A stretch of DNA of 64,000 nucleotides, taken from the NCBI GenBank assembly GCA_965209155.1, contig OZ242383.1, positions 928,001 to 992,000 of the forward strand. The letters run 5' to 3'. Position numbers and translations under genes: made by a program. Of the stretch, positions 10,904-48,241 are shown piece after piece. The first letter of the stretch is position 1. Every line of letters begins with the position of its first letter. Source of the stretch: a bacterium. GTDB lineage: Bacteria; SAR324; NAC60-12. The notes under the pieces are model-generated. The model made no database searches. It was not told the DNA's origin and saw only the letters and a list, made by a program, of their open reading frames with translations.

Positions 10904-13900
10904 TTAAGGTCTTGGGATAGTACGAATTCCGTACTTTTTCATCTTATTGTAGAGGGCTGCGCGGGAGATTCCGAGGGCGGCAGCGGTTTTTACCTTGTGG
11001 CCCTGGGAATTTTTCAGGGCGCTGAGAATCGTCGCTTTTTCATAATCCGCAACGGCCTGATCCAGCGCCATTTTCCTGGGGTTGGTGTTATCTCTGAAAT
11101 TTGAAGTTTCGCTGATTTTGGAATTTATCCGTTCTCCCGGAAAATCAATCTCTCCCTGGGAGACATAGCGATGCAGGGTGTTTTGCAACTCCCGGACATT
11201 GCCCGGCCAATCGTAAACCTGCAGGGCTTCCAGAAATCCCGGTGTGATGGGCTTTCCTTTATGAAGCGATGCTGTGGATTTCAATAAATGCTCGACCAGC
11301 AGGGGGATATCCTCTTTTCTTTCCCGGAGCGGGGGCAGGCGAATGGGAAAGACATGAATCCGGTAATAGAAATCTTCTCGAATTTGCCCCGTCTTTACCC
11401 GATCACTCAGGTCCTGGTTTGAGGCTGCAATGAAGCGGATATCGGGCTTGATGACCTTGGTGGTGCCAACCGGGGTAAAGCCACTGCCCTCCAGGACACG
11501 AAGCAGTTTAACCTGCAGGTTCAGCCCGATATCGGCCAGTTCATCCAGGAACAAAGTGCCTTTGTCGGTCAGGTGCAGGAAACCGCGCTGATCGCTGTCG
11601 GCCCCGGTGAAAGCCCCTTTTTTGTGTCCAAAGAACTCGCTCTCGATCAGGTTTTCGGAGATGGCCCCGAGGTTCACCGGGAAAAACACTTGCTCCTTGC
11701 GGTCACTGGCCTCGTGAATGGCCCGGGAGACCAGTTCTTTCCCGGTTCCCGATTCGCCGTAGAGGATCACGTTCGCATCGGTGGCCGCCGCTTGTAAAAT
11801 CAGCTCATATACCCGTTGCATGGGCTCGCTTTTTCCGATAATGTCGCCAAACCGAAAGCGGTCTTTGCTGCGGGTTCGCAGGCGGACATTTTCTTCACGC
11901 AGGGAGGTTTCGCTCGCTTTCAGCTCGTCCAGCGCCTTTTTGAGGTTTTCGTGAAGCCTGGCGTTTTCCAGGGAAATGGCGATCTGGGAGCTAAGGTGTT
12001 TGATCACCTCGAATCGTCGGGAGGTGAAGGCTCCCTCAACCAGGTTGTTTTCCAGGTAAATGATTCCACTCAGGACGGACTGATGAGTGATCGGTGCGCA
12101 CAGGATGGATTTAGGACGTTCCCGTTTAATATAGTCATCCTCGACAAACCGTTCCTCCCGAGAGGCGTTGTCCAAAACCAGGTGTTCCCGGGTTTGTTTC
12201 ACCCAGGAGATGATCAAGAGGGAGATAGAGCCGACCTTTTCCACAGGCAGGGAAAGCGGTAGAAAACATTCGACCTGCTCGGCGCTCCCGCGGGCAGCAA
12301 TGAGAGACTGACCTTCGGTTTCCAGAATCAGGGTTGCTGTCTGGGCTCCGGCATTTTCCATGAGAATGCGGAGCAGGATCTCCAGCAGCGGTTCCAACTC
12401 AAGGGTACTGGAGATGGTCTCCGAGGCTTTGAGCATCGTTGCCAGGTCCAGGTTGGCCGAAGGAGACACCGCCCCTTCGGCACGATCATCGACAATCAAC
12501 CCGGGATATCGAGACTTCAGGTGCGCGACCTTCCGTTTTGCCCCCCAGGCTTCGTACTGCTCCATTGCTGAGTGCAGGTAAGACCTGGCGGCGGCGCTCT
12601 GCCTCTGGTTGAGCAAGTACCTGGCTGCCAGTTCATCGGCCAGGGCTTCCTCGTGGATAAACTCGCTCTCTCTGGCCAAAGCGATGGCCTGGTCATAGTG
12701 GTGCATAATGGTATCGGGTTCACCCTCCAAAATTCGCATCCGTTCGGCTTCCACCAGGTGATATTTATGCAAATAATTGGGCGGTGCGCAGCGCGCCAGT
12801 TTCTCCAATGTATCTTGATTGTCATCGACCTGGGTGAGGATCTCCTCCTTTTCCCCCTCGCTCCCCTGGCCGTAAACCGCCAGGAGAGCGAGGGATTGGT
12901 AGCAGTTGGCCAGGGGATCACCAAGGGAATCCTTGTAAGTTTTCATCAGGTTGATCATTTCAAAAACCGTCTCCCGGGCTGCTTCATATTCTTCGAACAG
13001 GTATTGCAGCACCAGCTTTTGGTAATTAAAATGGCTCTGTTCAGGATAGACGAACTCTGCACCTGTCACCCTGTGGTATTGATCCATGATGACGCTCGAC
13101 AGGGGCGAAGGTTCCTCCATTAGAATCGTGACCGCCTTCATCTGCATTTCGGCATGGCGAGACCCGAGAATAGAATCGATCTTCTTGAGAGCAAGCTTCA
13201 ACGTCGACAATTCCCCTTTCAGCCAATTCAGCTCCTTCCCGCACATAAACGCTATACGACACCTTGCGACGGCGCTAGCACCGGCATTGATGAAATCTCC
13301 CGTCTCGATTCCCATCTTATGAGCTTCCAGCAAGGGCTCCAATGACGCCGATAGCGGCTCCCGATAGAACCGGGTCGCGCCGTTGAAATACGTGGAAACT
13401 CTACAGTTTATTTCCTTCAGATCAAGCGCTTCCATGAGCTGTATGCCCAGACGAGCGAGTTCATAACCAAATTCAAAATCCTGCGTAAACACGCAATATA
13501 TAAATCCAAGGAGACAATAGAATTCGGGTGAATATTCAGGATAAAAATAATTGAGCAGAAAAGAGATACGTTTTGCAGCGATGGGCTGCCAAAGACCGTC
13601 ATCCAAGGTAGTCCCAGCCACGCCATATGGCATATGGAGCTCATACAGGATGTGAACAAGGACCTCGGCATCCGGTTGGGTGAGCGGCTCAAAGCGCATC
13701 ACGTCTGCGACGCTTTTACCGGCCAGGCTGGATTTGATTTGAACCAGGGTCTGCTGCCACTGGTCGGGAGACAAATGGCTCAGTTGACACCCCAATTTCT
13801 CTAGAATCTCCGCGCCTATTTCCATGGCCTTCTTTAATTCGCCCTGGGTCGTATACGCCTGGATCCGGTATCGATAAACATTGACCAGGTCCAGGTCCTT

Positions 13901-16900
13901 TTGGGCGTTGTCTTTTACGGCACCGGCCAGCTTCTCCATCAACTCGAAGCGTCCGCAGAGCCATGACATCTCCGTGGCGGCTTCATGCAGGGATAAGGCC
14001 AGGGGATATTGCCGTTTCCAGGCGGCAACCCCTAAAAGCTCCAGGCCGATGGTAAAATATTGCAGGGCCTGTTCAAAAGCCGAAGCCGCCCTGGCCTTAA
14101 GACCGGCTTCCAGGTTGAGTTCCGCCAGGTGCGATCGTTCTTTCGCCCTGTTGTTCACCCTCCGGGCCAGGTTGAGATGGTGGACGATGTCAAAGAGCAG
14201 ATTATCCCTTTCCTCCGGAGCGGATTGCTTGAGCAGGGTCTGACCGATTTGAAGATGGACCGACTGTCTCTCCTTTTCGGCAATGAGAGCATAGGCAGCC
14301 TGCTGCACCCGGTCATGCAGGAATTTGTAGCTGCCACCCTCAGTGTTCGCTCCGTCCGGGGGATTATCCGGCTGCGGAGCCTGGGAAAAATCGAGGATCA
14401 ACCCGGTTTCCAGGGCCGGCAACAGGTTCTCATAGAGCTCCTCGCTTCCGGATCCGCTGATCAGTTCCAACGATTCCAGGTCAAAGGTATTGCCGATGCA
14501 GGCCGCCAGGCTTAAGAGTCGCCTGGTTTCAGAGGAAAACCGGTGGAGCCGGTCTATCAGCAAATCCACCACATTCTCGGTCACCACCAGGAATTCGATG
14601 GCAGCCAGCTCCCAGGTCCATCGTTTTTCCTCAGGGGAGTAGCGGATCAGCTCCTTCTCGGAGAGTACGGTCAAGAACTGGCTCACAAAGAAGGGATTGC
14701 CGCCGGTTTTGCGCACCAGGACCTCTGTCAGCGGGTTTGCCTCCTCAGGACGGCAGTGGCAGGTTTGGACGAGCAGTTGTGAGATGTTCTCTGGGTTCAA
14801 GGGTTTTAAGGGAATCGTTTGCACAGGCTGGCCTGATTTTTTGATCACCTCACAACTGATCGTCAGCCGGTGGCCGGCATCCACCTCGTTGTCGCGATAG
14901 GCTCCCAGGAAGAGCAGAGGTTTCCCCTCTTGATCCTGAGCGATCCGTTCCATCAGCTTGAGGGTATCGGCGTCCACCCACTGCAAGTCGTCCAGAAAAA
15001 TAACCAGCGGATGGGTTTTTTCACAGAAAAGGTCGATGAAATCCAGTAAAACGGCAGTGAAGCGGTTCCGGGACTCCAGCGCTCCCATTTCCGGTAGCGG
15101 GGGTTGCGGGCCGATCACCTGTTCCAGTTCCGGAATCACCCGGGTTATCAGTTGTCCGTTGGGTCCCAGCGCTGCCCATATCCTGTTTTTCCAACGCTCC
15201 AATTCGGATTTGTCTTCAACCGGTATCTCCCGGGTGAGTCCCCGCAGCGCCTGGATCAGGGCGCTGTATGAGATATTGTGCCGGAGCTGATCAAATTTGC
15301 CGGAGATGAAGAAGCCATTTTTTTGGGCAACGGACCGGTGAATTTCACCGACCAGTGCGGTTTTACCGACACCGGCGGATCCCGAGACCAACACCATCTC
15401 GGTTGCTCCCTGGCTGACTCGCTCCAGGGCGGCCTCCAGGGCGGCGATTTCATCCTCCCGGCCGTAAAGCCCCGGGGCGATCTGCAGTTCTTTGGGAATG
15501 TCATGGCGGCCCAGGGGAAAATCGGACAGGTTTTCCTGGTTTTCCAGTTGCTCCACACATGCCAGGAGATCGGCTGAAAGGCCCGAGTGGCTCTGGTAGC
15601 GCGCCTCGGCACGCTTTGCCAGCAGTTTCATCACCAGGCGGGAAAGGACTCTGGGTACTTGCGGTTCAATCTCGTCAGGGAGTACAGGCTTCCGGGCAAT
15701 GTGAGCGTGGATAATTTCCATGGCCTCCCGGGATTCGAAAGGCACTCTCCCACTGAAAAGTTCATAAAGGGTAGCCCCCAGGGAATAAAAATCACTGCGA
15801 TAATCGAGGGGGCGGTTCATCCGGCCGGTCTGCTCGGGGGAGATATAGGGCAAGGTTTCCCCGCTTAGCTGGGGACTCAACGTCGTCAAATTTTCCTTAG
15901 GCAACCGGGTGGCCAGGCCGAAACCGCTCAGTTTGACCGTCCCCGATGCCGGATCGACAAAAATATTCAACGGATTGATCATTTTATGAAGAATACCCTG
16001 CCGGTGCACTTCTTTCAGGGTGCTGGTCAATGAAACCGCTATCTTCAGCGAGTCCAGCAGGTCGAGCCGGGCGGCATCCATCAGCTTTCTTAAAGGGAGC
16101 GCATCAGTATTTTCCAGGATCAAAGCCCATCCGTTTTCACACTGCGCCAGTTCCTCTGACCTGAGGACCCCATCGATCTCGAGAGCCTGAGTGATCTCAT
16201 GCTCATGCCGTATTTCTGCCAGCTCCTGGGCGCTCTGCTCGGAAGATGCCGCTCCCTTGATCAGGACCAAAAGCCCGTCGCTTTGCCGCTTGCCGCGCCA
16301 GAGCCGGGTCCGCCCACTTTCAAAAATGACCTCCTCCAGCGAGTAACCCGGGACCTCGGGTTTTTCCCCACTGGAAACGAACTTTGTTTTGTTCACAACT
16401 GGTTCAGGAGGTACAGAAGCCGCTTTATTCGCTTTGGCCGCAGATTTCCGCAGATTTCCGCGGATGTTAGATGCTTTGGGTTTAACAACCTGCTGCTTGC
16501 GGGGGGGCTTTTTTATCATCTCTTCGACGAATTCCTTTTCAAAGGTTTCCTCTTCAGATTGGTGGATAATTTCTATCTTCGTGTCATGGAGTCTGCAAAC
16601 CTCTTCCAACAGTTCAAAGTCAAAGCGAAGCAAACGCTCTTTGCGGAGGACGTAGATCGTTTCTGCTTGATTATTGATGATGGTGAAGAGCAATTGTTTC
16701 CATCCTGGCTTCTTGTCGTTGATGCCACCTCCGATATCCGTGATGATTTGATAGGGGCTTCCTTGAAGCGCAAGATAGGATTCAATCAATTGTTCTTCTC
16801 TGAGAAGATCATCTTGTTGATGAGGGGAATCCACACACGCATACCCTAGATTGATCCTGTTTTTGGGTTGATCGTTCTGGAGGACTTGTGCCAGTTGTTC

Positions 16901-17026
16901 GTCGCTATACATTCGGTGACCTCCCTGGCTCCTGTAGGCAGGCACAAGGATCCCTTTTCGCTCCCATATCCTGATGGTTTCAACGGTTTTCCCAACCTTT
17001 TTTGCAAATGGACCAATACTGTACAT
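10904..17026 (-). CDS. Giant sigma54-dependent activator 1: IS607-TnpA-derived N-terminus, Ser/Thr pseudokinase, AAA (STAND-like), helical region, GAF, sigma54 AAA+, Fis HTH
   Basis: MerR-type HTH plus resolvase-like region (aa ~1-171); YISPEQTGRMN..DYRSDFYSLG; SGSAGVGKT and LDDLQW; GIIYLEN GAF; GESGTGKE, GAFTGA, LFLDE, WPGNVREL; LGISRAALYNK. Confidence 0.9.
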   Translation of the reverse strand: MYSIGPFAKKVGKTVETIRIWERKGILVPAYRSQGGHRMYSDEQLAQVLQNDQPKNRINLGYACVDSPHQQDDLLREEQLIESYLALQGSPYQIITDIGGGINDKKPGWKQLLFTIINNQAETIYVLRKERLLRFDFELLEEVCRLHDTKIEIIHQSEEETFEKEFVEEMIKKPPRKQQVVKPKASNIRGNLRKSAAKANKAASVPPEPVVNKTKFVSSGEKPEVPGYSLEEVIFESGRTRLWRGKRQSDGLLVLIKGAASSEQSAQELAEIRHEHEITQALEIDGVLRSEELAQCENGWALILENTDALPLRKLMDAARLDLLDSLKIAVSLTSTLKEVHRQGILHKMINPLNIFVDPASGTVKLSGFGLATRLPKENLTTLSPQLSGETLPYISPEQTGRMNRPLDYRSDFYSLGATLYELFSGRVPFESREAMEIIHAHIARKPVLPDEIEPQVPRVLSRLVMKLLAKRAEARYQSHSGLSADLLACVEQLENQENLSDFPLGRHDIPKELQIAPGLYGREDEIAALEAALERVSQGATEMVLVSGSAGVGKTALVGEIHRSVAQKNGFFISGKFDQLRHNISYSALIQALRGLTREIPVEDKSELERWKNRIWAALGPNGQLITRVIPELEQVIGPQPPLPEMGALESRNRFTAVLLDFIDLFCEKTHPLVIFLDDLQWVDADTLKLMERIAQDQEGKPLLFLGAYRDNEVDAGHRLTISCEVIKKSGQPVQTIPLKPLNPENISQLLVQTCHCRPEEANPLTEVLVRKTGGNPFFVSQFLTVLSEKELIRYSPEEKRWTWELAAIEFLVVTENVVDLLIDRLHRFSSETRRLLSLAACIGNTFDLESLELISGSGSEELYENLLPALETGLILDFSQAPQPDNPPDGANTEGGSYKFLHDRVQQAAYALIAEKERQSVHLQIGQTLLKQSAPEERDNLLFDIVHHLNLARRVNNRAKERSHLAELNLEAGLKARAASAFEQALQYFTIGLELLGVAAWKRQYPLALSLHEAATEMSWLCGRFELMEKLAGAVKDNAQKDLDLVNVYRYRIQAYTTQGELKKAMEIGAEILEKLGCQLSHLSPDQWQQTLVQIKSSLAGKSVADVMRFEPLTQPDAEVLVHILYELHMPYGVAGTTLDDGLWQPIAAKRISFLLNYFYPEYSPEFYCLLGFIYCVFTQDFEFGYELARLGIQLMEALDLKEINCRVSTYFNGATRFYREPLSASLEPLLEAHKMGIETGDFINAGASAVARCRIAFMCGKELNWLKGELSTLKLALKKIDSILGSRHAEMQMKAVTILMEEPSPLSSVIMDQYHRVTGAEFVYPEQSHFNYQKLVLQYLFEEYEAARETVFEMINLMKTYKDSLGDPLANCYQSLALLAVYGQGSEGEKEEILTQVDDNQDTLEKLARCAPPNYLHKYHLVEAERMRILEGEPDTIMHHYDQAIALARESEFIHEEALADELAARYLLNQRQSAAARSYLHSAMEQYEAWGAKRKVAHLKSRYPGLIVDDRAEGAVSPSANLDLATMLKASETISSTLELEPLLEILLRILMENAGAQTATLILETEGQSLIAARGSAEQVECFLPLSLPVEKVGSISLLIISWVKQTREHLVLDNASREERFVEDDYIKRERPKSILCAPITHQSVLSGIIYLENNLVEGAFTSRRFEVIKHLSSQIAISLENARLHENLKKALDELKASETSLREENVRLRTRSKDRFRFGDIIGKSEPMQRVYELILQAAATDANVILYGESGTGKELVSRAIHEASDRKEQVFFPVNLGAISENLIESEFFGHKKGAFTGADSDQRGFLHLTDKGTLFLDELADIGLNLQVKLLRVLEGSGFTPVGTTKVIKPDIRFIAASNQDLSDRVKTGQIREDFYYRIHVFPIRLPPLRERKEDIPLLVEHLLKSTASLHKGKPITPGFLEALQVYDWPGNVRELQNTLHRYVSQGEIDFPGERINSKISETSNFRDNTNPRKMALDQAVADYEKATILSALKNSQGHKVKTAAALGISRAALYNKMKKYGIRTIPRP

Positions 17027-17255
17027 CTGTGATCTGTCCCGAATGAGTGATTGTAATCATTCATATAAAAAAGATTTAATAACAATTCAAGATATTTACA
17101 GATATTGGTTAACTGATTTGCAAATGGACCAATACTGTACATCTGTGATCTGTCCCGAATGAGTGATTGTAATCATTCATATAAAAAAGATTTAATAACA
17201 ATTCAAGATATTTACAGATATTTAGAGATATTTACAGATATTAGTTAACTGATCC
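16514..17255 (-). mobile_element. IS607-family relic: tnpA-derived domain plus candidate left end with 10-bp direct repeats
   Basis: TnpA motifs degenerate (YACVDS, DIGGG, ERLLRFDF); AGATATTTAC-type decamers x4 at 17206-17245; no tnpB follows. Confidence 0.75.
17001..17252. repeat. Tandem duplication (period 116 bp) of the activator-1 start and upstream region
   Basis: TTTGCAAATGGACCAATACTGTACATC...GATATTTACAGATATT at 17001 and 17117; the copies carry 2 vs 4 decamers. Confidence 0.95.
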
Positions 17256-17305: not shown

Positions 17306-18460
17306 CTACGGCCAGTGGTTGGGTCTCAGTTGGAGGAGAAACTCATCAACTGGCCAACACGAAATTCCATCTACTAATAGTTTTTCTGTTCCTCGATAGA
17401 GCAATATCGTGTTTGCCTCAGGATAATCCGCTTGAAACACTTTGAGGGATCTCAAGGTTTTTGGGTGGATCTGTTGGGCATTTTTAACCTCCAGCGCATA
17501 GAAATGATGGTCTCCATATAAGACAATATCCACCTCAGAGCCTCCCCGCGATCGCCAAAAATAACAATTTGCATTACCCTCAGAATAATCACACCAGGCT
17601 TTTAAATGTTGTAACACCAAACCCTCCAAGGCAAGACCCCCTATTTCCTCTGGGCTATCAATGGGCCCTTTGGGACGCAAATGGTGGTAAACCCCGGCAT
17701 CAAACAGATAAAATTTCGCTTGCGCTGTCAGGGCGCGTCTGGCTCGTTTGGTAAAGACCGGCAGCTTATATCCCAATAGGAGATCTTCAAGAATCGATAG
17801 ATAATTCTCGACAATTTTTCGGGATACCTGGCACTCTCTGGCAATATTGCTGAGGTTCAAAACACTGCCGTGTGAAAAACTAATGACTTCCAGAAATCGG
17901 GCAAAGGTTCCGATATCCCGGACTAACGCCTCTTCCTTGACCTCTTCCTTCAAATAAAGAGAGAGGTAAGCCGCCAAGGTCTTATCCGGTTTCCTTGCCG
18001 AAACAATCAAAGGGATCAACCCATTGCCGAGTGCTGCATCCAGTGAAAAATCGGCACCCATTTCCGCAGCCAGAAAGGGATGGTAACGGGTTAATAAGGC
18101 GCGGCCGGCTAATAGATTGACGCCACCCCGGCGCAATTTTCGAGTACTCGAACCGGTCAGAATAAACTGATGGGATTTGTGCTCCTCAATCAAACTGTGG
18201 ATACTGTCCAGAATTGCAGGCACTTTTTGAACTTCATCAATAATGTAACGTTTGATTTGTGGGTTTGCGGTGACGATTTGTTTGATTCGCTCGGGGTAGG
18301 CCACGTGGTTTCTGAAAGTCCTGTCGTCCAACAAGTCGATGAGGTACGCGTCCGGAAAAGTTTTTTTGAGCCAGGTTGACTTTCCTGTCCCTCTGGGACC
18401 GAAAATAAAGAAGCTATCCGCAGGAGCTTCAAAAAATCTTTTGAAATATCTGTCCCTCAT
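17306..18460 (-). CDS. AAA+ ATPase with DUF4143 (COG1373-type)
   Basis: GPRGTGKST, IIDEVQK, ILTGSS, KFYLFDAG, YFWRS..EVD..EVK. Confidence 0.85.
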   Translation of the reverse strand: MRDRYFKRFFEAPADSFFIFGPRGTGKSTWLKKTFPDAYLIDLLDDRTFRNHVAYPERIKQIVTANPQIKRYIIDEVQKVPAILDSIHSLIEEHKSHQFILTGSSTRKLRRGGVNLLAGRALLTRYHPFLAAEMGADFSLDAALGNGLIPLIVSARKPDKTLAAYLSLYLKEEVKEEALVRDIGTFARFLEVISFSHGSVLNLSNIARECQVSRKIVENYLSILEDLLLGYKLPVFTKRARRALTAQAKFYLFDAGVYHHLRPKGPIDSPEEIGGLALEGLVLQHLKAWCDYSEGNANCYFWRSRGGSEVDIVLYGDHHFYALEVKNAQQIHPKTLRSLKVFQADYPEANTILLYRGTEKLLVDGISCWPVDEFLLQLRPNHWP

Positions 18461-20407: not shown

Positions 20408-20780
20408 ATGAAACCATTCCAAGTTTATAAAAAGCACTGGGAGGAAGCCTTTCTCAGAAAAGAAACAGAGAAAGAACAGCACCGACAGGCGGCTTTGAGA
20501 GAGGCTGAGAGGCTCAAGCAAATTCTCATAGACGAATTTCGTGTAAAACGTATTATCTTTCGGTTCGGTCTTATGCAGAGGTGCTTTTGAAGCAGATTCT
20601 GACATTGACTTCGCCGTCGAAGGATTGGCGAAGGAAGAATATTTTCCCGCACTGGCCAGGCTGATGATGGCTAGTCCCTGGGAGGTAGATTTGAAACCCA
20701 TCGAAGAGATGGAAAAATTGCTTAGAGACCATATTGCCAAAGGACAGATTTTGTATGAAAAAAGAGAGTCTTCCTGGAAA
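20408..20780 (+). pseudogene. Minimal nucleotidyltransferase (MNT antitoxin), frameshifted, HEPN partner absent
   Basis: Rejoined frames give II(L)FGS...DSDIDFAVEGL...VDLKPIE; shift near 20558. Confidence 0.75.
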
Positions 20781-20803
20781 GTTTTGAATCTCTCTAAAAT
20801 CAA

Positions 20804-20825
20804 TGTTATAACATATGTAATAACA
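20804..20825. promoter_or_regulatory. Probable TA operator (tandem palindromes)
   Basis: TGTTATAACA and TGTAATAACA just upstream of the AbrB antitoxin start. Confidence 0.6.
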
Positions 20826-20846
20826 CTAAATATAAAAGGATTAATC

Positions 20847-21074
20847 ATGCAAGCATTAAAATTAAGAAAAATTGGGAATTCATTTGGGATAGTGTTTCCA
20901 AAAGAGGTTTTGGGACAAATTGGTGTTAGTGAAGGAGATTCATTGTTTTTAGTTGAAACACCAGAAGGAGCCTTTCAACTCACACCTTATGATCCTGAAT
21001 TCGAAAAACAGATGGAAATTGCTGAAAGAGGCATGTCAAAATACCGAAATACTTTAAGGACACTTGCCCAATGA
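20847..21074 (+). CDS. AbrB/MazE-family antitoxin
   Basis: MQALKLRKIGNSFGIVFPKE..LTPYDPEFEKQM; overlaps the doc start. Confidence 0.85.
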   Translation: MQALKLRKIGNSFGIVFPKEVLGQIGVSEGDSLFLVETPEGAFQLTPYDPEFEKQMEIAERGMSKYRNTLRTLAQ

Positions 21075-34353: not shown

Positions 34354-34391
34354 GTTCCTGTCTCCTGTATTAGATTAAAGATTACAATGAT

Positions 34392-34531: not shown

Positions 34532-34561
34532 AAAATAGAAAATCACACCCAACTAGTGCTC

Positions 34562-34677: not shown

Positions 34678-34679
34678 AT

Positions 34680-37955: not shown

Positions 37956-38924
37956 CTAAGCGAAGGGGTTGATCAGTCGGGCGAGGAATCCTTTTTTGCG
38001 TTTCACCTTCGCGGTGCCGTAACTGCCCTGACCGCCTCGCAGTCGGGGGTCGAGCAGGTCCCTCACTGCGTCGCCGAACATGTTGAGGGAGTAGACGACA
38101 ATCGTCAGGCACAGCCCCGGCCAGATCGCCAGCCGTGGGGCCATCTCCATGAACTGGCGCCCTTCCTGGCTGAGCATGACTCCCCAGCTGGGAACCCCGA
38201 TGGGCAGACCGAATCCCAGGAAGCTCAGAGAGGCCTCAGACAGAATCACCCCCCCGATGTTGATGGAGAAGATGATGATGATCGGCGCCACAATATTGGG
38301 CAGCACATGTCGCAGGAAGATTTGGCTCGTGGGGGTGCCCACGGCCCTGGCGGCCAGAAAGTAGTCATTCTCTTTAATGCCGATCACGGCGCCTCTGACG
38401 ACTCTTGAGCCACCGATGCCTCCGGCGATGCCCAGGACCAGTATTATCTGTGGTATACCCCGTCCCACTATGGACATGATGGTTAACAACAGGAGCAGAC
38501 CCGGAAAAGCCATCCAGGCATCGACAAATCTCTGCACAGCCAGGTCCAGTTTACCACCAAGGAATCCTGAAGTACCGCCTATCAGGACCGCCACCACAAC
38601 ATTAACAGCGGTCGCTGACAGACCGACGACTAACGAAACACGAGCCCCGACGAAAAGGCGGCTCAGGAGGTCTCTCCCCAACTGGTCGGTACCCAGCAGA
38701 TACCGGGTTGATGGGCCAGTCAGCCGGTCTGCCAGGTGCATTTCCCAATATGGATAAGGAGCCAGAACATTGGCAAAGATAGCCACAAAAATCAATATCA
38801 ATATGATAATCCCGCAGGCAGTACCCAGTGGCTTCTCCCTGAGAAGCCTGATAAAGAAATCAGCCAGCCGGCCCCGTCGCTTGGGCTCCTTGATGGCGGA
38901 GGGTTTCTCTTTGGTGTTATTCAT
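37956..38924 (-). CDS. oppC: Opp/Dpp permease (OppC-like), cluster 2
   Basis: LGTDQLGRD, RHVLPN, SFLG, GDAVRDLLDPR. Confidence 0.9.
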   Translation of the reverse strand: MNNTKEKPSAIKEPKRRGRLADFFIRLLREKPLGTACGIIILILIFVAIFANVLAPYPYWEMHLADRLTGPSTRYLLGTDQLGRDLLSRLFVGARVSLVVGLSATAVNVVVAVLIGGTSGFLGGKLDLAVQRFVDAWMAFPGLLLLLTIMSIVGRGIPQIILVLGIAGGIGGSRVVRGAVIGIKENDYFLAARAVGTPTSQIFLRHVLPNIVAPIIIIFSINIGGVILSEASLSFLGFGLPIGVPSWGVMLSQEGRQFMEMAPRLAIWPGLCLTIVVYSLNMFGDAVRDLLDPRLRGGQGSYGTAKVKRKKGFLARLINPFA

Positions 38925-38946
38925 GATCCCGATTTTTCTATAATAC

Positions 38947-39077
38947 AGTCCTGGAGGGACGAAAGGTAATAGCCCAGCGATTCATCGTTGGGAAAGGAAC
39001 CCCCCCTCCTCAGCTAGTCCCAGAGGGACGACACTTCTTCGATCTAGCGAGTTACTCCCTTTCGTCCCTCCGGGACT
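38947..39077. repeat. REP-like inverted triplet (AGTCCCxGAGGGACG family)
   Basis: AGTCCTGGAGGGACGAAAG, AGTCCCAGAGGGACGA and inverted CTTTCGTCCCTCCGGGACT. Confidence 0.7.
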
Positions 39078-39125
39078 TCTTCTTACAGACGAATCTCAAA
39101 CCCATATTTACCAGAGGCATAACGA

Positions 39126-40133
39126 CTATTCATACCGCACCCTCGGGTCCAAATAGGGATAAATCAGGTCGATCATTAGATTTATTGCTAAAATCGCAGT
39201 GCCGAAAACCAGGTTTACTCCGGAGACCACCGGGTAGTCTCTCTCCGTGAGGGCAACCAGCAGGAGACGACCGAGGCCCGGCAGGTTGAAGATGTTCTCC
39301 ATGATCACGGCGCCCCCGACCAGGATCGGCAACTGCAGACCGATCAGGGTCACCACCGGGATGAGGGCATTTTTGATGGTGTGTCTGATCACCACGACCC
39401 GCTCCTTGAGCCCCTTGGACCAGGCCGTCCGGATATAGTCCTGCCTGAGCACCTCCAGCATCATGGTGCGCGTCATCCGCATGGTCTCGCAAGAAGCGGC
39501 CGTCCCCAGAATCAGGCTGGGAATGAATAACCCCTTGAGACTTCCCAGTGGGTCTTCGGTGAAAGGAATGTATACCAGAGGGGGCGCCCAGCCCCACCAG
39601 ATTGCCGGGAAGATCATGACCATAAGTGCCAGCCAGAAGTTAGGCGTTGCCAGGCCGATGATGGCGGCGGTGCGCCCAGCGTAGTCGGCGGCCGTATCCT
39701 GGCGAATCGCCGAGTAGATGCCGACAGGCAGGGCTATCAGCAGCCCGATTACGATTGCCATGACGCCAAGCTCAAGGGTGACCGGCAGTCTATCTATTAT
39801 CTGCTCCTCCACCGCCCCCCGGCCAATCAGTGATTCGCCAAGGGTGCCCTGGAGGAGACCGTTGAAACGCGACTCCATGCTAAACGGGTCAGGGGTCGGC
39901 AACACTCCTAGCCAGCGTCCATACTGCACGGGCACGGGCACGTCTAATCCCAGCATACGCTTAAGAGCTTCACGGTCAATCTCGAATGCCAGCACCCCCT
40001 CCGCTTCCATCTTAGCCACCATGGCGTCTATCATATCGCCGGGGATGAAGCGGACCGAGAGAAAGACTATGATGGTCAATATCCATAAGGTGGGAATTAT
40101 CAGCAATAACCGCCTGATGATATAGGCTTTCAT
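39126..40133 (-). CDS. oppB: Opp/Dpp permease (OppB-like), cluster 2
   Basis: IPGD, DYIRTAWSKGL, IFNLPGLG, DPRVRY. Confidence 0.9.
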   Translation of the reverse strand: MKAYIIRRLLLIIPTLWILTIIVFLSVRFIPGDMIDAMVAKMEAEGVLAFEIDREALKRMLGLDVPVPVQYGRWLGVLPTPDPFSMESRFNGLLQGTLGESLIGRGAVEEQIIDRLPVTLELGVMAIVIGLLIALPVGIYSAIRQDTAADYAGRTAAIIGLATPNFWLALMVMIFPAIWWGWAPPLVYIPFTEDPLGSLKGLFIPSLILGTAASCETMRMTRTMMLEVLRQDYIRTAWSKGLKERVVVIRHTIKNALIPVVTLIGLQLPILVGGAVIMENIFNLPGLGRLLLVALTERDYPVVSGVNLVFGTAILAINLMIDLIYPYLDPRVRYE

Positions 40134-40138
40134 AAACC

Positions 40139-41950
40139 CTAATGCCCCATTGCTTCCTTCAGCTCACTATCAATCCAGAGGCGGGCTAAGAATGACTGGG
40201 TTTCACCCATTCCTATTCTTATTTCGGCGTTATAACCTTTGACCCACGGCTGCCAAGCTTGGAACTGTGGGGTTTCGACCCCATATACGAATGAGTGCTT
40301 GGCTGTCGTGTACATAATTGCCTCTTTGCCCAGCCTATTCTGCTCCTCAAGGGTGGTAACGGCGTTTGCTTTGTCCCACAGGGCGTCATATTCGGGGTCT
40401 TTCAGGGACCAGTGCTGGCCGGAATCTGAATGAAACGACCACAGATGATCGGGGAGCCTATACCTGATGGCCACCGACGCGGATGTCATTCTGTAGGTAT
40501 CCTGATCTCCTTTTGTGGCCCCCACAATTGTCGGCCAATCCATACCAGCGTCTATCTCGATCACCACGCCAATCTGACGCCAGTATCCCGCGACCAGTTC
40601 TGCATAGCTCGGATCGAACCGTTCATAGTAGGCCATGCGGGTCTTGAATCTAATGCCGTCCGCGCCGCGGGTAAGCCCAGCCGCATCAAGCAACGCTTCT
40701 GCACCTTCCGGGTCATAGGTATAGCCTTTCTTCACCTCTTCGGGCCACTCCTCAAATGGCGTGCCAAACGGCATATCATTGGCTATATATCCCTGCGGAG
40801 TCGCATTGCCATAACCCTTATAGAAGGTATTCACAATGGTCTCGCGGTCCACTGCCATATTCATTGCCTGGCGCACCCGGATGTCATTCCAGGGCGGTCT
40901 GTGCACACCGACGAAAACGAAACTCTGGTCGGACCGATACGTAATAGGCCCCAGCTCAATTTCGGGGTCGGTCCGCTGGAGGCTCTCTATCTGGTCGATC
41001 GACCTTAATTGAGAGTCGCCGACAGTCCCCAGCATATCAATCGTACCCGTGCGCAGTGCCGCCAGACGGGTTGCCTCATCTGGCATGAACAAGGTTATTA
41101 CCTTGTCAACATAGGGCAAGCGGTTCTCCGGGTATTTTTCGTCGTAGGCCCAGTAGTCAGGATTTTTGGTCCAGGTCCTAGTGCTGTCTTCGACCAGCTC
41201 CGTCAGCTCATAGGGTCCGGTGCCGACCGTGTTCCGCCAATCCTTATAGTCGCCGTGTTGCTCGATGACCTCCGGAGGGTAGATCACAGCAACCCAGTGA
41301 ACCAGGAGATTTAGCAGGGCACGAAGGTCTGGCTCCTTCAGCTTAAAAACAACCGTATATTTGTCGGTGGCCGTTATCGACTCGAAATTGTCTGGCTTCA
41401 ACCCACCTACCACTGGGCTAGGGCCGGCTTCACTGAACTTGCCCAGCCCCAATAAACGATGCCAGTTATATTCGACATCCCTGGCCGTCAATGCTCTCCC
41501 GTTCACCGGTGCCTTGTCGTGCCAGTTAACGCCCTTTCGGATGTTGAAGATAATGGTTGTATCGTCGGGCGTTTCCCAGCTTTCCGCCAGTGCCCCTTTC
41601 CGGGAAGGTGGAGGTGGGTCTGCAAAGTACCGCCAGTCCCATACGTCCCTATCTATTCCCCAGTTCCCGATGCCGAGCATCTCATTAACCAAACCGATGT
41701 TATGGGTCGCCCAGCCAGAAATGTACCAGACATCAGAATGCGCAGCCCAACTGACCCGGCCATAGGTTATTGTCCCGCCATACTCAGGTGCACTCACCAT
41801 TTTACCAGTGGTCGGATCTTTGACCATCTTTTTCTCAGCCGCAATGGCCAAACCGACCCCGAGGGCGGCCACCATCAGGGTGAGGGACAGCAGGATTGCA
41901 CTGAAGGTTGATTTGCTGTTTAGATTAAACATTGCGATTTTCGATTTCAT
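40139..41950 (-). CDS. oppA: Family 5 substrate-binding protein, cluster 2
   Basis: Start MKSKI after GGAG; PEYGG, LAESWE, GTGPY, DIRVRQA. Confidence 0.9.
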   Translation of the reverse strand: MKSKIAMFNLNSKSTFSAILLSLTLMVAALGVGLAIAAEKKMVKDPTTGKMVSAPEYGGTITYGRVSWAAHSDVWYISGWATHNIGLVNEMLGIGNWGIDRDVWDWRYFADPPPPSRKGALAESWETPDDTTIIFNIRKGVNWHDKAPVNGRALTARDVEYNWHRLLGLGKFSEAGPSPVVGGLKPDNFESITATDKYTVVFKLKEPDLRALLNLLVHWVAVIYPPEVIEQHGDYKDWRNTVGTGPYELTELVEDSTRTWTKNPDYWAYDEKYPENRLPYVDKVITLFMPDEATRLAALRTGTIDMLGTVGDSQLRSIDQIESLQRTDPEIELGPITYRSDQSFVFVGVHRPPWNDIRVRQAMNMAVDRETIVNTFYKGYGNATPQGYIANDMPFGTPFEEWPEEVKKGYTYDPEGAEALLDAAGLTRGADGIRFKTRMAYYERFDPSYAELVAGYWRQIGVVIEIDAGMDWPTIVGATKGDQDTYRMTSASVAIRYRLPDHLWSFHSDSGQHWSLKDPEYDALWDKANAVTTLEEQNRLGKEAIMYTTAKHSFVYGVETPQFQAWQPWVKGYNAEIRIGMGETQSFLARLWIDSELKEAMGH

Positions 41951-42051
41951 AAGATTCTCCTTAAATGAATGAATAAAGGTTGAGTTGATCTCATACCACT
42001 TAAAGGGCATTGCCCCTTGCCCCGCGTTTTTCGGCAGGTTGAGTTTTATGC

Positions 42052-42254
42052 TTCAAGCAGTGTGCCAAATTTGAGGATATTCAGTTAACTTATTGTAATT
42101 ATTAACTAATTTTGACAAGTGGAGGTTTTTGTATGTGAAGCAGATGTTCAATTATGTTAATTTAAGCCGGGAGGAAATAGTAGTTAACCCACTGATATTA
42201 AAGATTTATAGATCAAAATCCAGAACTTGAAACAAATGTTTAATATTTTGAACA
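42052..42254 (-). promoter_or_regulatory. Second sigma54 promoter/IHF/enhancer module
   Basis: TTGGCACACTGCTTGAA at 42052-42068; TGTT-N10-AACA at 42237-42254, degenerate site at 42145; IHF-like site at 42185-42197; all offset 31710 bp from module 1. Confidence 0.75.
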
Positions 42255-42270
42255 CTATTAAACTCTATTA

Positions 42271-45200
42271 TTAAGTTCCTATAATGATCCTAATTCCGTA
42301 CTTTTTCATTTTGTTGAAGAGGGTGGTCCGGGAGATTCCCAGGGCAGCAGCGGTTTTTATCTTGTGACCCTGGGAATTTTTCAGGGCAATGAGAATCGTC
42401 GCTTTTTCACTATCCGCAACGGCTTGCGCCATTTTCCCGTGGTTGATCTTATCTCCAAAAATTGAAGTTTCGCTGATTTTAGAATTTATCCGTTTCCCCA
42501 GAAAATCGACCTCTCCCAGAGTGACATAGCGATTCAGGGTGTTTTGCAACTCCCGGACATTGCCCGGCCAATCGTAGGCTTGCAGGGCTTGCAGAAATCC
42601 TGGTGTGATGGGCTTTCCTTGTTGAAGCGGTGCCATGGATTTCAAAAAATGCTCGACCAGCAGGGGGATATCCTCTTTTCTTTCCCGGAGCGGGGGCAGG
42701 CGAATGGGAAGGACATGAATCCGGTAATAGAAATCTTCTCGAATTTGCCCCGTCTTTACCCGGTGACTCAGGTCCTGGTTTGAAGCCGCGATGAACCGGA
42801 TATCGGGCTTGATGACCTCGGTGGTGCCAACCGGGGTAAAGCCATTGCCCTCCAGGACACGAAGCAGTTTAACCTGCAGGTTCAGCCCGATATCGGCCAG
42901 TTCATCCAAGAACAAAGTCCCTTTGTCGGTCAGGTGCAGGAAACCGCGCTGATCGCTGTCGGCCCCGGTGAAAGCGCCTTTTTTGTGTCCAAAGAACTCG
43001 CTCTCGATCAGGTTTTCGGAGATGGCCCCGAGGTTCACCGGGAAAAACACTTGCTCCTTGCGGTCACTGGCCTCGTGAATGGCGCGGGAGACCAGTTCTT
43101 TCCCGGTTCCCGATTCGCCGTAGAGGATCACGTTCGCATCGGTGGTCGCCGCTTGTAAAATCAGCTCGTATACCCGTTGCATGGGCTCGCTTTTTCCGAT
43201 AATGTCGCCAAACCGAAAGCGGTCTTTGGTGCGGGCTCGCAGGTGGACATTCTCCTCGCGTGGGGAGGTTTCGCTCGCTTTCAGCTCGTCCAGCGCCTTT
43301 TTGAGGTTTTCGTGAAGCCTGGCGTTTTCCAGGGAAATGGCAATCTGGGAGCTAAGGTGCTTGATCACCTCGAGTCGCCGGGGGGGGGAAGGCCCCCTCA
43401 ACCAGGTTATTTTCCAGGTAAATGATGCCGGTCAAAGATGACTGATGAGTGATCGGTGCGCACAGGATCGATTTGGGACGCTCCCTCCGGATATAGTCAT
43501 CTTCGGCAAACCGTTCTTCCCGAGAGGCGTTGTCCAAAACCAGGTGTTCCCGGGTTTGTTTCACCCAGGAAATGACCGAGAGGGAGAGGGAGAAAGCCTT
43601 TTCCACAGGCAGGGAAAGCGGTAGAAAACATTCGACCTGCTCGGCGCTCCCGCGGGCAGCAATGAGAGACTGACCTTCGGTTTCCAGTATCAGGGCTGCT
43701 GTCTGGGCTCCGGCATTTTCCATGAGAATGCGGAGCAGGATCTCCAGCAGTGGTTCCAACTCAAGGGTACTGGAGATGGTCTCCGAGGCTTTGAGAATCG
43801 TCCCTAGGTCCAGGTTTGTAGAAGGAGACGTCGCTTCAGCACGATCATCGGCAATCAACCCGGGATATCGAGACTTCAGATGCGCGACCTTCCGTTTTGC
43901 TCCCCAGGCCTCGTACCTCTCCAATGCTGAGCGCAGGTAAGACCTGGCGTCGTTGTTTTGCCCCTGGTTGAGCAAGTACCTGGCTGCCAGTTCATTGGCC
44001 AGAGCTTCCTCGTGGATAAATTCGTTCTCTCTGGCCAAAGCGATGGCCTGGTCATAATGGGACAGAATCGCGTCGCTTTGACCCTCCAAAACCCTCATCC
44101 GTTCGGCTTCCACCAGGTGGTATTTATGTAAATAATTGGGTGGTGCGCAGCGCGCTAGTTTCTCCAATGTATCCTGATTGTCATGGACCTGGGTGAGGAT
44201 CTCCTCCTTTTCCCCCTCGCTCCCCTGGTCGTAAAGCGCGAGGAGAGCGAGGGACAGGTAGCAGTTGGCCAGGGGATCAACAAGGGCATCCTTGTAGGTT
44301 TTCATCAGGTTGATCATTTCAAAAACCGTCTCCCGCGCTGCTTCGTATTCTCCAAACAGGGTTTGCAGCACCAGCTTTTGGTAATTAAAACTGCTCTGTT
44401 CATGAGGTTGGTACTCTGTACCCCTCCCCCTATCGTATTGATCCATGATGCCGGTTGACAGGGTCGAAGGTTCCTCCATTAGAATCATGACCGCCTTCGT
44501 CAGCATTTCGGTCTTGGAAAACCCGATAATATAATCGATCTTCTTGAGAGCAACCTTCAACGTCGACAATTCCCCTTTCAGCCAATTCAGCTCTTTCCCG
44601 CACATAAACGCTAACTGACACCTTGCGAGGGCGTTAGCACCGGCATTGTAGAAATCTCCCGTCTCGATTCCCATCTTATGAGCTTCCAGCAAGGGATCCA
44701 ATGACGCCGATAGCGGCTCCCTGTAGATCCGAATCCCGACGTTGAAACCTCCGGAAACTCTACAGTTTATTTCCTTCAGATCAAGCGCTTCCATGAGCTG
44801 TATGCCCAGGCGACCGAGTTCATAACCAAATTCAAAATCCTGAATATACACGCAATAGATCATTCCAAGGAGACAATAGAATTCGGGTGATTGTTTCGGA
44901 TGAAAATGACTGAGCAGCAACGAGATGCGTTTTGAAGCGATGGGCTGCCAAAGACCGTCATCCAAAGTAACCCCAGCCTCGCTATATGGCAAATGGAGCT
45001 CATATAGAATATGGACTAGGACCTTGGAAAGCGGTTGGGTGAGCGGCTCAAACTGCATCACTTCTTCAGCGCTTTTACCGGCCAGGCTGGATTTGATTTG
45101 AACGAGGGTCTGCTGCCACTGGCCGGGAGACAGACGGCTCAGTTGACACCCCAATTTCTCCAGAATTTCCTCGCCCGTTTTCAGGGCCTTCTTTAATTCA

Positions 45201-48200
45201 CCCTGGTTGGTGTACGCCTTGATCAGGCATTGATAAACATTGGCCAGGTCCAGGTCCTCCCGGACGTTTTCTTTTACGCCACCCGCCAGCTTCTCCATCA
45301 GGTCAAACTGGCCACAGAGCCATGACATCTCCGTGGCTTCCTCATGCAGGGATAAGGCCAGGGGGTATTGTCGTTTCCAGGCGGTGGCTCCTGAAAGCTC
45401 CAGACCTATGGTAAAGTATTCCAGGGCCTGTTCAAAAGCCGAAGCCGCCCTGGCCTGACGACCGGCTTCCAGGTTGAGTTCTGCCAGGTGCGATCGTTCT
45501 TTCCATTTATCCTTCACCCTCCGGGCCAGGTTAAGATGATGGACGATGTCAAAAAGCAGAGCATCATTTTTTCCGAGAGCGTATTGTTTGAGCAGGGTCT
45601 GACCGATTTGAAGATGGACTGACTGTTTCTCCTTTTGTGCAATGAGGGCATAGGCAGCCTGCTGCACCCGGTCATGCAGGAATTTATAGCTATCGCTCTC
45701 CGTGCTCGCTCCGTCGGTCGGATTATCCAGCTGCGGGACCCGGGAAAAACCGAGGATTAACCCGTTTGCAAGGGCCGGCAACAGGTTCTCATCGATCTCC
45801 CCGCTTCCTTCTCCGCTGATCAGCTCCAAGGATTCCAGGTCAAAAGTATTGCCGATGCAGGCCGCCAGGCTTAAGAGTCGCCTGGTTTCAGCGGAAAACC
45901 GGTGGAGCCGGTCAATCAGCAACGCCACCACATTATCGGTCACCGCCAGGAACTCGATGGCAGCCAGGTCCCAAATCCATCGTTTTTCCTCAGGGGAGTA
46001 GCGGATCAGGTCCTTCTCGGAGAGTACGGTTAAAAACTGGCCCACAAAGAAGGGATTGCCGCCGGTTTTGCGCACCAGGACCTCTGCCAGCGGGTTTGCC
46101 TCCTCAGGACGGCAGTGGCAGGTATGGACGAGCAGTTGTGAGATGTTCTCCGGATTTAAGGGCTTTAAGGGGATCGTTTGGACAGGCAGGCCTGTTCTTT
46201 TGATCACCTCACAACTGATCGTCAACCGGTGGCCGATATCCACCTTGTTGTCGCGATAGGCCCCCAGGAAAAGCAGAGGTTTCCTCTCCGGATCCTGAGC
46301 AATGCGTTCCACCAGCTTGAGGGTATCGGCGTCCACCCACTGCAAGTCGTCCAGAAAAATAACCAGGGGATGGGTTTTTTCACAGAAAACAGAGATGAAA
46401 TCCAGTAAAACGGCAGTGAAGCGGTTCCGGGACTCCAGCGCTCCCATTTCCGGCAGCGGGGGTTGCGGGCCGATCATCTGTTCCAGTTCCGGAATCACCC
46501 GGGTTATCAGTTGTCCGTTGGGTCCCAGGGCAGCCCGTATCCTGCTTTTCCAACGCTCCATTCCGGATTTCTTTTCGACTGATATCTCCCGGGTGAGTCC
46601 CCGCAGCGCCTGGATCAGGGCGCTGTAGGGGATATTGTGCCGGAGCTGGTCAAACTTGCCGGAGATGAAGAAGCCGTTTTTTTGGGCAACGGACCGGTGA
46701 ATTTCACCGACCAGAGCGGTTTTGCCGACACCAGCGCTTCCCGAGATCAGCACTATCTCGGTCGCTCCCTGGCTGACTCGCTCCAGGGCGGCCTCCAGAG
46801 CGGTGATTTCTTCCTCCCGGCCGTAAAGCCCCGGGGCGATCTGCAATTCTTTGGGAACGTCCTGGCGTCCCAGGGAAAAGTCGGACACGTTTCCATTTTT
46901 TTCCAGTTGCTCCAGACATGCCAGGAGGTCGGCTGAAAGCCCTGAGTGACTCTGGTAGCGGGCTTCGGCGCGCTTTGCCATCAGTTTCATCACCAAGCGG
47001 GAAAGGACTCTGGGTACTTGCGGTTCAATCTCGTCAAGGGGCAGGGGCTGCCGGGCAATGTGAGCGTGGATGATTTCCATGGCCTCCCGGGAGTGGAAAG
47101 GCACTCTCCCGCTGAAAAGTTCATAAAGGGTGGCGCCCAGGGAATAAAAATCACTGCGATAATCGAGCACCCGGTTTATCCGGCCGGTCTGCTCGGGGGA
47201 GATATAGGGCAGGGTTTCCCCGCTTAGCCGGGGACTCAACGTCGTCAAATTTTCCTTAGGCAACCGGGTGGTCAGGCCGAATCCGGTCAGTTTGACCGTT
47301 CCCGATGCCGGATCGACAAAAATATTGAACGGATTGATCATTTTATGCAGGAGGCCCTGCCGGTGTACTTCTTTCAGGGTGCTAGTCAGTGAAACCGCTA
47401 CCTTCAGCGAGTCCAGCAGGTCGAGCCGGGCTGAATCCATCAACTTTCTTAAAGGAAGCGCATCAGTGTTTTCCAGGATCAAGACCGATCCGTTTTCATA
47501 TTGCACCACTTCCTCTGCCCTGAGGACCTCATCAATCTCCAGAGCCTGAGTGATCTCATACTCATGCCGCATTTCCGCCAACTCCTGCGCGCTCTGATCA
47601 GAGGAAGCCGCTCCCTTGATCAGGACCAAAAACCCGTCCCTTTGCCGCTTGCCGCGCCAAAGCCAGGTCCGCCCACTTTCAAAAATGACCTCCTCCAGCG
47701 AATAACCCGGAATCTCCGGTTTTTTTTGATCAGAAATCGTCTGCTCTTTTATTGGCCTGGGTGGCGTTTCCTTTCCCGGTCCGGTAGAGATTTCTTCACT
47801 GGACCTTTCAGGCATTTTGAAACTTTTCAGCAGATCCCCCATAAAACCCTGATTCTTTTCGATTTCGTGAATTTTTCCCAGCATTCTCCGGGCGGTATAG
47901 TAATTTAATCCGATTTTTTCTGATAATTGTTGAGCCGTCGTCTCGCCATTGCATGCCGCCACATAATAAATCCCCCAAAACCAGTAACGCAGTGGAGTCC
48001 GCGTCCGGTGCATCAGAGTTCCTGCGTTGAGCGAAGTCTGGTGTTTACAGTTTCTGCATTGCAGTATTTGACGTTTTTTCAGGGCATCGTATCGGTGACT
48101 ACCACAGAGGGAGCACACATAACCGGCTGGCCAACGCAGGTGGAAAAGGTGATTGCGACAGACTTCATCGTTCGAAAACAGCTTTTGGATCTCGTGAAAG

Positions 48201-48241
48201 GCATGAGCTTGAGTTGTTTCATCCACTTGGCGCTCCCACAT
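42271..48241 (-). CDS. Giant sigma54-dependent activator 2 with IS1595-derived N-terminus; +1 frameshift in a C9 tract separates the sensor part (43352-48241) from the activator part (42271-43401)
   Basis: Colinear paralogue of 10904-17026; N-terminal LRWPAGYVCSLCG..CRNCKHQTSLNAGT zinc ribbon; G9 at 43380-43388 where G8 restores the frame. Confidence 0.85.

Follow-up and report, generated by a model that had tools for sequence, protein, structure and literature searches.

Recombinase-derived N-terminal modules in a lineage-specific family of giant sigma-54 activators

Two genes in a 64,000-nucleotide stretch of a bacterial genome of the SAR324 lineage (NAC60-12; assembly GCA_965209155.1, contig OZ242383.1, positions 928,001 to 992,000, hereafter the window) encode giant sigma-54 activators whose N-termini resemble parts of mobile-element recombinases. 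Gene A (10904-17026) starts like TnpA, the transposase of the insertion sequence (IS) IS607, and gene B (42271-48241) like the transposase of IS1595. The locus raises the question of whether such fusions are genuine and maintained, where they come from, and what a DNA-binding fragment of a recombinase may do at the head of a transcriptional regulator. An earlier note, made from the sequence alone, had described the two genes as a pair. The fusions prove genuine and under selection, and they extend well beyond the pair first described: the genome, a single 4.26-Mb contig that includes the window, encodes 24 such paralogues, A and B among them.

The two giant activators of the window

Gene A is the intact member of the pair, and its parts are as follows.

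10904-17026, minus strand: gene A (P0001), intact giant sigma-54 activator of 2040 amino acids (open reading frame (ORF), translation, Pfam)
16886-17023, minus strand: residues 2-47, MerR-type helix-turn-helix (HTH) of IS607-type TnpA (PF13411, MerR_1, E 1e-10)
16514-16852, minus strand: residues 59-171, remnant of an IS607-family serine-recombinase catalytic domain, with 'CVD' in place of 'RVS' (PDB matches, alignments)
16352-16513, minus strand: residues 172-225, Lys/Pro-rich linker of arm-class type (identity to arm-class linkers)
15578-16297, minus strand: residues 244-483, pseudokinase (Pfam Pkinase; PknB alignment)
14909-15469, minus strand: residues 520-706, AAA_16, a P-loop NTPase probably of STAND type (PF13191, E 4e-42)
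11969-12400, minus strand: residues 1543-1686, GAF (PF01590)
11342-11842, minus strand: residues 1729-1895, sigma-54 interaction AAA+ domain with GAFTGA (PF00158, E 7e-66; translation)
10931-11053, minus strand: residues 1992-2032, C-terminal Fis-type HTH_8 (PF02954)

The Pfam Resolvase match in A (residues 61-170, 23-26 bits) is barely over the cut-off; residues 59-171 match the solved catalytic domains of the IS607-family TnpA proteins 3lhk, 3lhf, 3ilx and 6dgc with E-values of 1e-19 to 9e-12. Together with the MerR_1 match, these results confirm that A begins with a module derived from IS607 TnpA. In these alignments, the 'RVS' motif of 3lhk and 3lhf faces 'CVD' in A, as it does in the copies of a genome of the same genus (G001). 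The serine-recombinase fold is therefore kept and the serine of the motif, presumably the catalytic nucleophile of TnpA, is gone. Aligned to PknB, the kinase domain has HKM in place of HRD and SGF in place of DFG; it is a pseudokinase, since both catalytic aspartates are missing. Matches to nSTAND, NB-ARC and TPR_CHK1 in the core stay below the Pfam cut-offs. The Walker A motif GESGTGK and the GAFTGA loop are both present in the sigma-54 AAA+ domains, as read from the translations of A and of the 3' part of B.

Gene B is arranged in a similar way, in two reading frames.

43352-48241, minus strand: 5' part of gene B (P0002, 1629 amino acids), with zinc-ribbon/HTH module, linker, pseudokinase, AAA_16 and GAF (ORF, Pfam)
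47852-48241, minus strand: residues 1-130, IS1595-type zinc ribbon (residues 24-68), then helices (PF12760, E 1e-11; alignment; ratio of non-synonymous to synonymous divergence (dN/dS); model)
47711-47851, minus strand: residues 131-177, linker of the zinc-ribbon class, predicted to be disordered (predicted local distance difference test (pLDDT) 32-35; dN/dS 0.71)
43380-43388, minus strand: run of nine C, site of the +1 frameshift of gene B (reading-frame comparison with A)
42271-43401, minus strand: 3' part of gene B (P0003, 376 amino acids), sigma-54 AAA+ (PF00158, E 1e-61) and HTH_8 in the other frame (ORF, Pfam)

The match to Zn_ribbon_IS1595 at residues 24-68 bears out the IS1595 origin of this second module. 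No DDE domain is found among the Pfam matches of B, and the loss of transposition catalysis thus holds for both proteins, as had been proposed. From A205/B159 onwards, B is 84% identical to A over 1463 amino acids; the two proteins are colinear paralogues. The earlier note had taken 42271-48241 for one ORF, which it is not: two frames are joined by a +1 shift, and eight C instead of nine at 43380-43388 would bring B back into line with A. Gene B is plausibly a real pseudogene, because its target operon is damaged (see below) and other family members are clearly decayed. A homopolymer error of sequencing or assembly may also account for the shift: one contig in each of the runs X1, X5 and X6 has one base fewer in the poly-C tract, a weak sign given Logan contigs of 100-300 nt with paralogues mixed in at 92% likeness. 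That the break of B is common to other assemblies was considered and rejected, as the truncated zinc-ribbon proteins P0107, P0108 and P0112 break elsewhere.

The two modules had been described as joined to the core at the same fusion point, a likeness that proves superficial. The linker of A (residues 172-225) is 63-78% identical to eight stretches, seven of them in arm-class paralogues and one in an arm-class fragment, and gives no match with the linkers of the zinc-ribbon class. Since it is homologous to the arm-class linker, the true junction of A lies about 50 amino acids upstream of the kinase and is not that of B. Gene A is most readily interpreted as an arm-class paralogue whose head would have given way to an IS607 tnpA.

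A family of 24 paralogues with three types of head

The genome encodes 24 paralogues with a kinase region 83-100% identical to that of A, plus fragments. All 24 have an N-terminal module in frame with the core, which by Pfam is Arm-DNA-bind_3 in 13 (Arm class), Zn_ribbon_IS1595 in nine (Zn class) and MerR in two (MerR class). The 13 arm-class proteins start with the arm-binding domain of P4-type integrases (PF13356). The MerR class consists of A and L006, the HTH of which joins the core directly, with neither resolvase part nor linker, in a frame that stays open. The common core comprises the pseudokinase, AAA_16, a long helical region, GAF (along with PAS in some), the sigma-54 AAA+ domain and HTH_8. 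Module and core are joined by linkers that evolve fast and are probably disordered. Seven paralogues (L015-L021) have a diverged C-terminal part, 54-66% identical to A; close relatives elsewhere have PAS domains besides GAF and the sigma-54 domain. Besides B, the split members are L023/L029, L024/L026 and L025/L027, and L024/L026 contain stop codons. Among the 28 sigma-54 activator domains of the genome, about 25 are found in this family and only two in proteins of conventional size (474-487 amino acids).

The likely donors of the heads are largely missing from the genome. All 15 matches to Arm-DNA-bind_3 are family members or fragments of them, and the profile search reveals no integrase carrying this domain. 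The only Resolvase-model match is gene A itself, whose ORF runs on into the regulator, so that its module is not part of a complete mobile element with further copies; searches with this module return A and L006 only, and neither these nor the Resolvase model uncover a standalone IS607-type tnpA. The Zn module matches residues 18-121 of the seven resident IS1595 transposase ORFs (311 amino acids) at about 26% identity.

Origin and history of the heads

Proteins related to the core usually start at the kinase, as had been expected. Homologues from further genera of the family and order, with 24-46% identity, have no more than about 46 amino acids ahead of the core at all 19 loci examined. Among the 150 best cluster representatives, drawn from 1.8 billion proteins, the match begins within the first 18 residues in 140, and six more have offsets implying short N-termini. 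The four exceptions are the family's own representative, P0127 (an extra kinase domain and a C-terminal guanylate cyclase), P0169 (76 N-terminal amino acids with no recognised domain, ending in HisKA/HATPase) and P0125. In the last, the core is 41% identical to that of the family, and the head is a clear homologue of the Zn module. As so distant a core bears a homologous head, the Zn fusion predates the genus. Apart from this case, the giant activators with recombinase-derived heads are specific to this lineage.

Two independent captures at one position, as first proposed, do not describe a family with three module types among 24 paralogues. Trees were built from the kinase, middle and C-terminal parts of the core, and changes of module class were counted against shuffled labels. 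Module class is not clustered on these trees (8-10 changes, compared with 7.8-9.1 in shuffles), and on the middle and C-terminal trees the branches with a Shimodaira-Hasegawa-like approximate likelihood-ratio (SH-aLRT) support of at least 95 force at least five changes. Synonymous divergence reaches 0.49-0.75 in the heads as against 0.28-0.29 in the kinase domain. Taken together, the absence of clustering and the higher synonymous divergence of the heads fit recombination or gene conversion among the cores, which would have left the non-homologous heads distinct. Recombination among paralogues is a simpler history than one capture per gene, and the history is one of cassette shuffling within a large family.

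Selection on the heads and occurrence in other assemblies

The dN/dS ratio was estimated among paralogues by the Nei-Gojobori method, with medians taken for the Zn and Arm domains, the kinase and the linkers. The Zn domain gives 0.23 and the Arm domain 0.26, next to 0.29-0.32 for the adjacent kinase domain; the linkers between module and kinase evolve almost neutrally (0.71-0.86). For the MerR HTH, values of 0.10-0.14 are obtained between A and the L006 and G001 copies. All nine Zn-class paralogues keep four cysteines of the ribbon unchanged. The heads are thus under clear purifying selection, and the check proposed earlier (0.1-0.26 across the modules) upholds the view of in-frame, domesticated, recombinase-derived modules kept by selection.

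The fusions recur outside this genome, in line with the earlier suggestion to search for them elsewhere: 78 of 105 close relatives carry a Zn (38), Arm (37) or MerR (3) module, and 27 have none. Full-length MerR-Resolvase fusions of 2038-2040 amino acids are found in other assemblies (P0004, P0005 and P0006), with modules 91-98% identical to that of A and whole proteins 85-93% identical. Used as query against long proteins, the Zn module (residues 1-140) retrieved 43, all of them members of the giant-activator family. Near-identical DNA occurs in sequencing runs that mostly carry the label sponge or marine metagenome, the best of them containing 0.48 of the sampled words. That the fusions are artefacts, chimeric joins of IS fragments and regulator genes made by assembly or annotation, can practically be discounted. 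The genome is indeed repeat-rich and probably assembled from long reads, and B shows a homopolymer frameshift, but the same fused ORFs are present 24 times in the genome and in the 78 proteins just mentioned, and the selection signal crosses the modules.

The same data bear on the idea that the modules are by-products of promoter capture, in which upstream mobile elements would have given a promoter and a start codon, and a DNA-binding piece with no role would have been carried along. Several features agree with such a history: modules and 5' regions move as units, A resembles an arm-class gene whose head was swapped for IS607 tnpA, L006 stays open despite having lost the resolvase part and linker, and decay is real in the split members. 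Passengers of this kind seem quite unlikely all the same, as module dN/dS is as low as that of the kinase and far below the ~0.7-0.9 of the adjacent linkers, the zinc ligands do not vary, the Zn module was retained across the divergence of the P0125 core, and the MerR module keeps 91-98% identity in the full-length orthologues.

Target operons and the choice of the enhancer

Both genes of the window are followed on the same strand by a control region and a putative target operon.

10342-10550, minus strand: control region downstream of A, with two adjacent upstream activating sequence (UAS) palindromes, an IHF-like site, a third UAS and a sigma-54-type promoter (10342-10357) (sequence scan, alignment)
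866-9907, minus strand: putative target operon of A, encoding SBP_bac_5, two permeases, two ATPases, a BNR/sortilin-like protein, ThuA and Ldh_2 (Pfam; same layout beside other paralogues)
42052-42255, minus strand: control region downstream of B, with UAS sites, an IHF-like site and a sigma-54-type promoter (42052-42067) (sequence scan, alignment)
35848-42010, minus strand: putative target operon of B, damaged, with a solute-binding protein gene, two permease genes, an IS110-family fragment and a lone 5'-truncated ATPase gene (Pfam)

A same-strand ABC uptake operon lies downstream of nearly every paralogue and encodes either SBP_bac_5 with Opp-type permeases or MalFG-type permeases, often along with BNR/sortilin-like, ThuA, SDR and Ldh_2 genes. 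In the operon of B, the place expected for the first of the ABC ATPase genes is taken by an IS110-family transposase fragment (37001-37471, plus strand). The ATPase gene that is left (35848-36579) has no counterpart to positions 1-56 of the ABC_tran profile. The genome encodes rpoN. The exact sigma-54-type promoter pattern occurs 33 times genome-wide, 17 of these within 4 kb downstream of a paralogue, and a relaxed pattern is present for 22 of the 24 paralogues. Alignment of the 230 bp upstream of the promoters reveals a common layout: a pair of adjoining palindromes, then an IHF-like site, a further palindrome and finally the promoter.

As a separate observation, catabolic modules with BNR/sortilin-like, ThuA, SDR and Ldh_2 genes occur three times in the window (866-3979, 26391-28951 and 32887-35705) and beside many paralogues. 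Some copies are fragmentary, with Ldh_2 pieces at 26391-26873 and around 21569-22233.

The recognition helix of HTH_8 matches the subtype of the UAS palindrome in 20 of 20 regulators, which fall into five HTH/UAS groups. Module subclass is independent of the UAS group, with 10 shared pairs against 9.7 in shuffles, and an element varying with module class is not seen in the aligned 230 bp. For these two reasons, the heads probably do not select the enhancer. A combinatorial address code, with module subclass and UAS group as its two terms, was likewise rejected, the observed pairs being equal to the shuffled expectation.

A weaker role at the target has also been weighed, in which the module makes a second contact at the enhancer, either close to the sigma-54 promoter or by bridging the 5' region to the UAS some 6 kb away, and so stabilises the oligomer or adds promoter specificity. 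With only five HTH/UAS groups for 20 regulators, extra specificity would be useful, and integrase arm domains bridge distant sites. This arrangement is unlikely, given that the aligned control regions hold no module-class element, that module subclass and UAS group pair at the shuffled rate and that the listed 9-mers of the MerR class (see below) do not recur downstream of A or L006.

The nature of the targets also speaks to the sensing of a cognate IS, for which the earlier note had invoked an integrated decoy: the module would detect the ends or the transposase of a mobile element and couple this to gene activation. The recombinase origin of the modules and a STAND-like core that recalls immune sensors, with its sub-threshold nSTAND and NB-ARC matches, lend the idea some appeal. 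It finds no support here and is very improbable, as the outputs are operons for ABC uptake and for sugar and organic-acid catabolism rather than defence genes, the genome has neither IS607 nor an integrase bearing this arm domain, and the resident IS1595 transposases are only distantly similar to the module.

The 5' regions and the probable function of the heads

Of the DNA compared, the one part that varies with module class is the 5' region of the gene itself. Those of A and B are organised as follows.

17001-17242, minus strand: 5' region of A, with a tandem duplication of period 116 bp (copies 100% identical, covering the start codon and first codons) and 3.7 copies of a 10-bp repeat (repeat analysis)
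48200-48325, minus strand: 5' region of B, with a tandem duplication of period 66 bp (copies 88% identical), likewise covering the start codon and first codons (repeat analysis)

The 5' region of A is shared only with the other MerR-class gene, and its duplication is very recent, since the two copies are identical. The MerR class is the only one with repeated upstream 9-mers, and none of those listed recurs downstream of its two genes. A tandem duplication of the 5' leader is a feature of every paralogue examined, with periods of 116, 66, 174 and 80 bp (17001-17222 for A and 48200-48325 for B, further cases at L017:6409-6692 and L002:7460-7607).

On balance, it is somewhat more likely than not that this lineage-specific family uses its recombinase-derived heads to bind the regulators' own 5' regions, for autoregulation or for tethering in cis. 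A ligand sensed by the large sensor region would release the AAA+ domain, which would then activate the adjoining ABC uptake or catabolic operon, the target enhancer being chosen via HTH_8 and not by the N-terminal module. The module would have arrived as a cassette together with its own 5' region and would bind the repeats there, either repressing the regulator's own promoter or keeping the protein tethered in cis where it is encoded. Repression or tethering at their own ends is known for truncated transposases and for integrase arm domains. By elimination and by this analogy, binding to their own 5' regions is the most likely function of the heads.

A more specific form of the proposal can be put forward tentatively. 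Head and repeat-bearing 5' region may together make up a portable, self-addressed cassette, in which the head would still bind its ancestral end-repeats, anchor or autoregulate in cis, and be swapped among paralogues at a conserved junction. If true, this would be a bacterial counterpart of the eukaryotic transposase-derived transcription factors that arose on three occasions, with a tyrosine integrase, a DDE transposase and a serine transposase as the sources.

Several observations weigh against binding of the heads to their own 5' regions or against parts of the picture in which it is set. No exact 9-mer of the Arm or the Zn class both occurs in 60% or more of the upstream regions and is repeated in 40% or more of them; exact words are a strict test, and this result is therefore no evidence that a class motif is absent. 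A scan for the sigma-70 consensus upstream of A returns no site, compared with a mean of 2.0 in shuffled sequence. At the targets, the promoters of both A and B have a -12 element TTGA with one mismatch to the consensus TTGC, and B itself is frameshifted with its operon broken. The Zn-class gene L014 (G000:C1:4155229-4161210) carries ATA, immediately behind a stop codon, at the position of the ATG start of its relatives; its frame is otherwise open over 1994 amino acids.

Further points of this kind concern the modules as domains. The dN/dS of the resolvase remnant is about 0.38, based on few differences (non-synonymous 23-25, synonymous 14-15). Modelled with AlphaFold, the Zn module reaches a modest pLDDT of 60.6, with the ribbon followed by helices at residues 84-129 (pLDDT 75-87) and the linker at 32-35. 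Foldseek comparison of this model with the PDB gives nothing at E of 0.001 or less, and none below 0.7; the best local likeness is with winged HTH domains of the Lrp/AsnC and MarR types, over a short span of 44-54 columns. Most of the 27 module-less relatives are N-terminally cut gene calls, and nine begin 16-51 amino acids before the core. The MerR-Resolvase copies of G001 (L032 and L035) have module and core in separate frames, with the break in the linker, which could reflect decay, a two-gene form or an assembly error. Contigs of the RNA run X19 cover eight of 30 bins, the junction not being among them.

Genes next to A and elsewhere in the window

Directly upstream of A and on the same strand, 17306-18460 encodes an AAA_14/DUF4143 ATPase. 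Relatives of this ATPase, 37-38% identical, likewise precede two other paralogues (genome positions 3149267 and 2727320). Within 20625-21460 and 24298-24987 of the window, two small overlapping ORFs are, judged by eye, candidates for an AbrB/SpoVT-type antitoxin and a Fic/Doc-type toxin, and a gene for an AbiEii-type nucleotidyltransferase toxin (Pfam) is close by.

Relation to known systems

The C-terminal half of these proteins and their control regions resemble those of the GAF-sensor enhancer-binding proteins of the NifA, FhlA and NorR type: the same sigma-54 AAA+ domain with GAFTGA, a Fis-type HTH_8, a palindromic UAS, an IHF-like site and an adjoining -24/-12 promoter. In contrast to them, the present family has a sensor region of about 1,500 amino acids, with pseudokinase, AAA_16 and helical region before the GAF, a second, N-terminal DNA-binding module, and as many as 24 paralogues within 4.26 Mb. 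Thousands of signalling proteins combining kinase, AAA_16 and GAF (PF00069, PF13191 and PF01590) with histidine-kinase, cyclase or sigma-54 outputs have a core 37-44% identical to the one here; the recombinase heads, however, are confined to this lineage, with the more distant zinc-ribbon protein P0125 besides. No description of the kinase-AAA-GAF-sigma54 architecture with recombinase heads was found in the literature, as covered mainly by listings and abstracts.

Each head can be compared with its parent enzyme. The IS607-family TnpA (PDB IDs 6dgc, 6dgb, 3lhk, 3lhf and 3ilx) has the same MerR-like HTH followed by a serine-recombinase fold as A, and published work on this enzyme (eLife 2018, PMC6188088) describes binding of multiple subterminal repeats through the N-terminal domain; gene A has short direct repeats upstream. 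Unlike TnpA, the remnant in A is cut at about position 116 of 140-154, is devoid of the Arg and Ser of 'RVS' and is fused to a regulator of 1,800 amino acids. The N-terminal region of the IS1595 transposase has the same zinc ribbon (PF12760) and then helices, whereas the module of B ends at about residue 130, with no DDE domain. The arm domain common to 13 paralogues is that of tyrosine integrases of the P4/lambda type, here followed by neither a core-binding nor a catalytic integrase domain.

Retention of a recombinase DNA-binding domain for regulation, after loss of catalysis, is seen in the transposase-derived transcription factors of eukaryotes and in the truncated IS transposases that act as repressors in bacteria. 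In the present case, by contrast, three unrelated recombinase families are represented at one position of one bacterial regulator family. To our knowledge, the domestication of such domains in regulators is classic in eukaryotes and hardly documented in bacteria.

Significance

The genome is otherwise devoid of two of the three parent enzymes, and purifying selection on the heads is clear. With 20 regulators and five enhancer specificities, the family offers a natural test set for the avoidance of cross-talk among near-identical enhancer-binding proteins. It dominates the sigma-54 regulon and appears to control nutrient-uptake operons. Given this dominance, the uptake operons among its putative targets and the occurrence of near-identical DNA in sponge and marine metagenomes, the family is probably central to substrate sensing by this uncultured bacterium.

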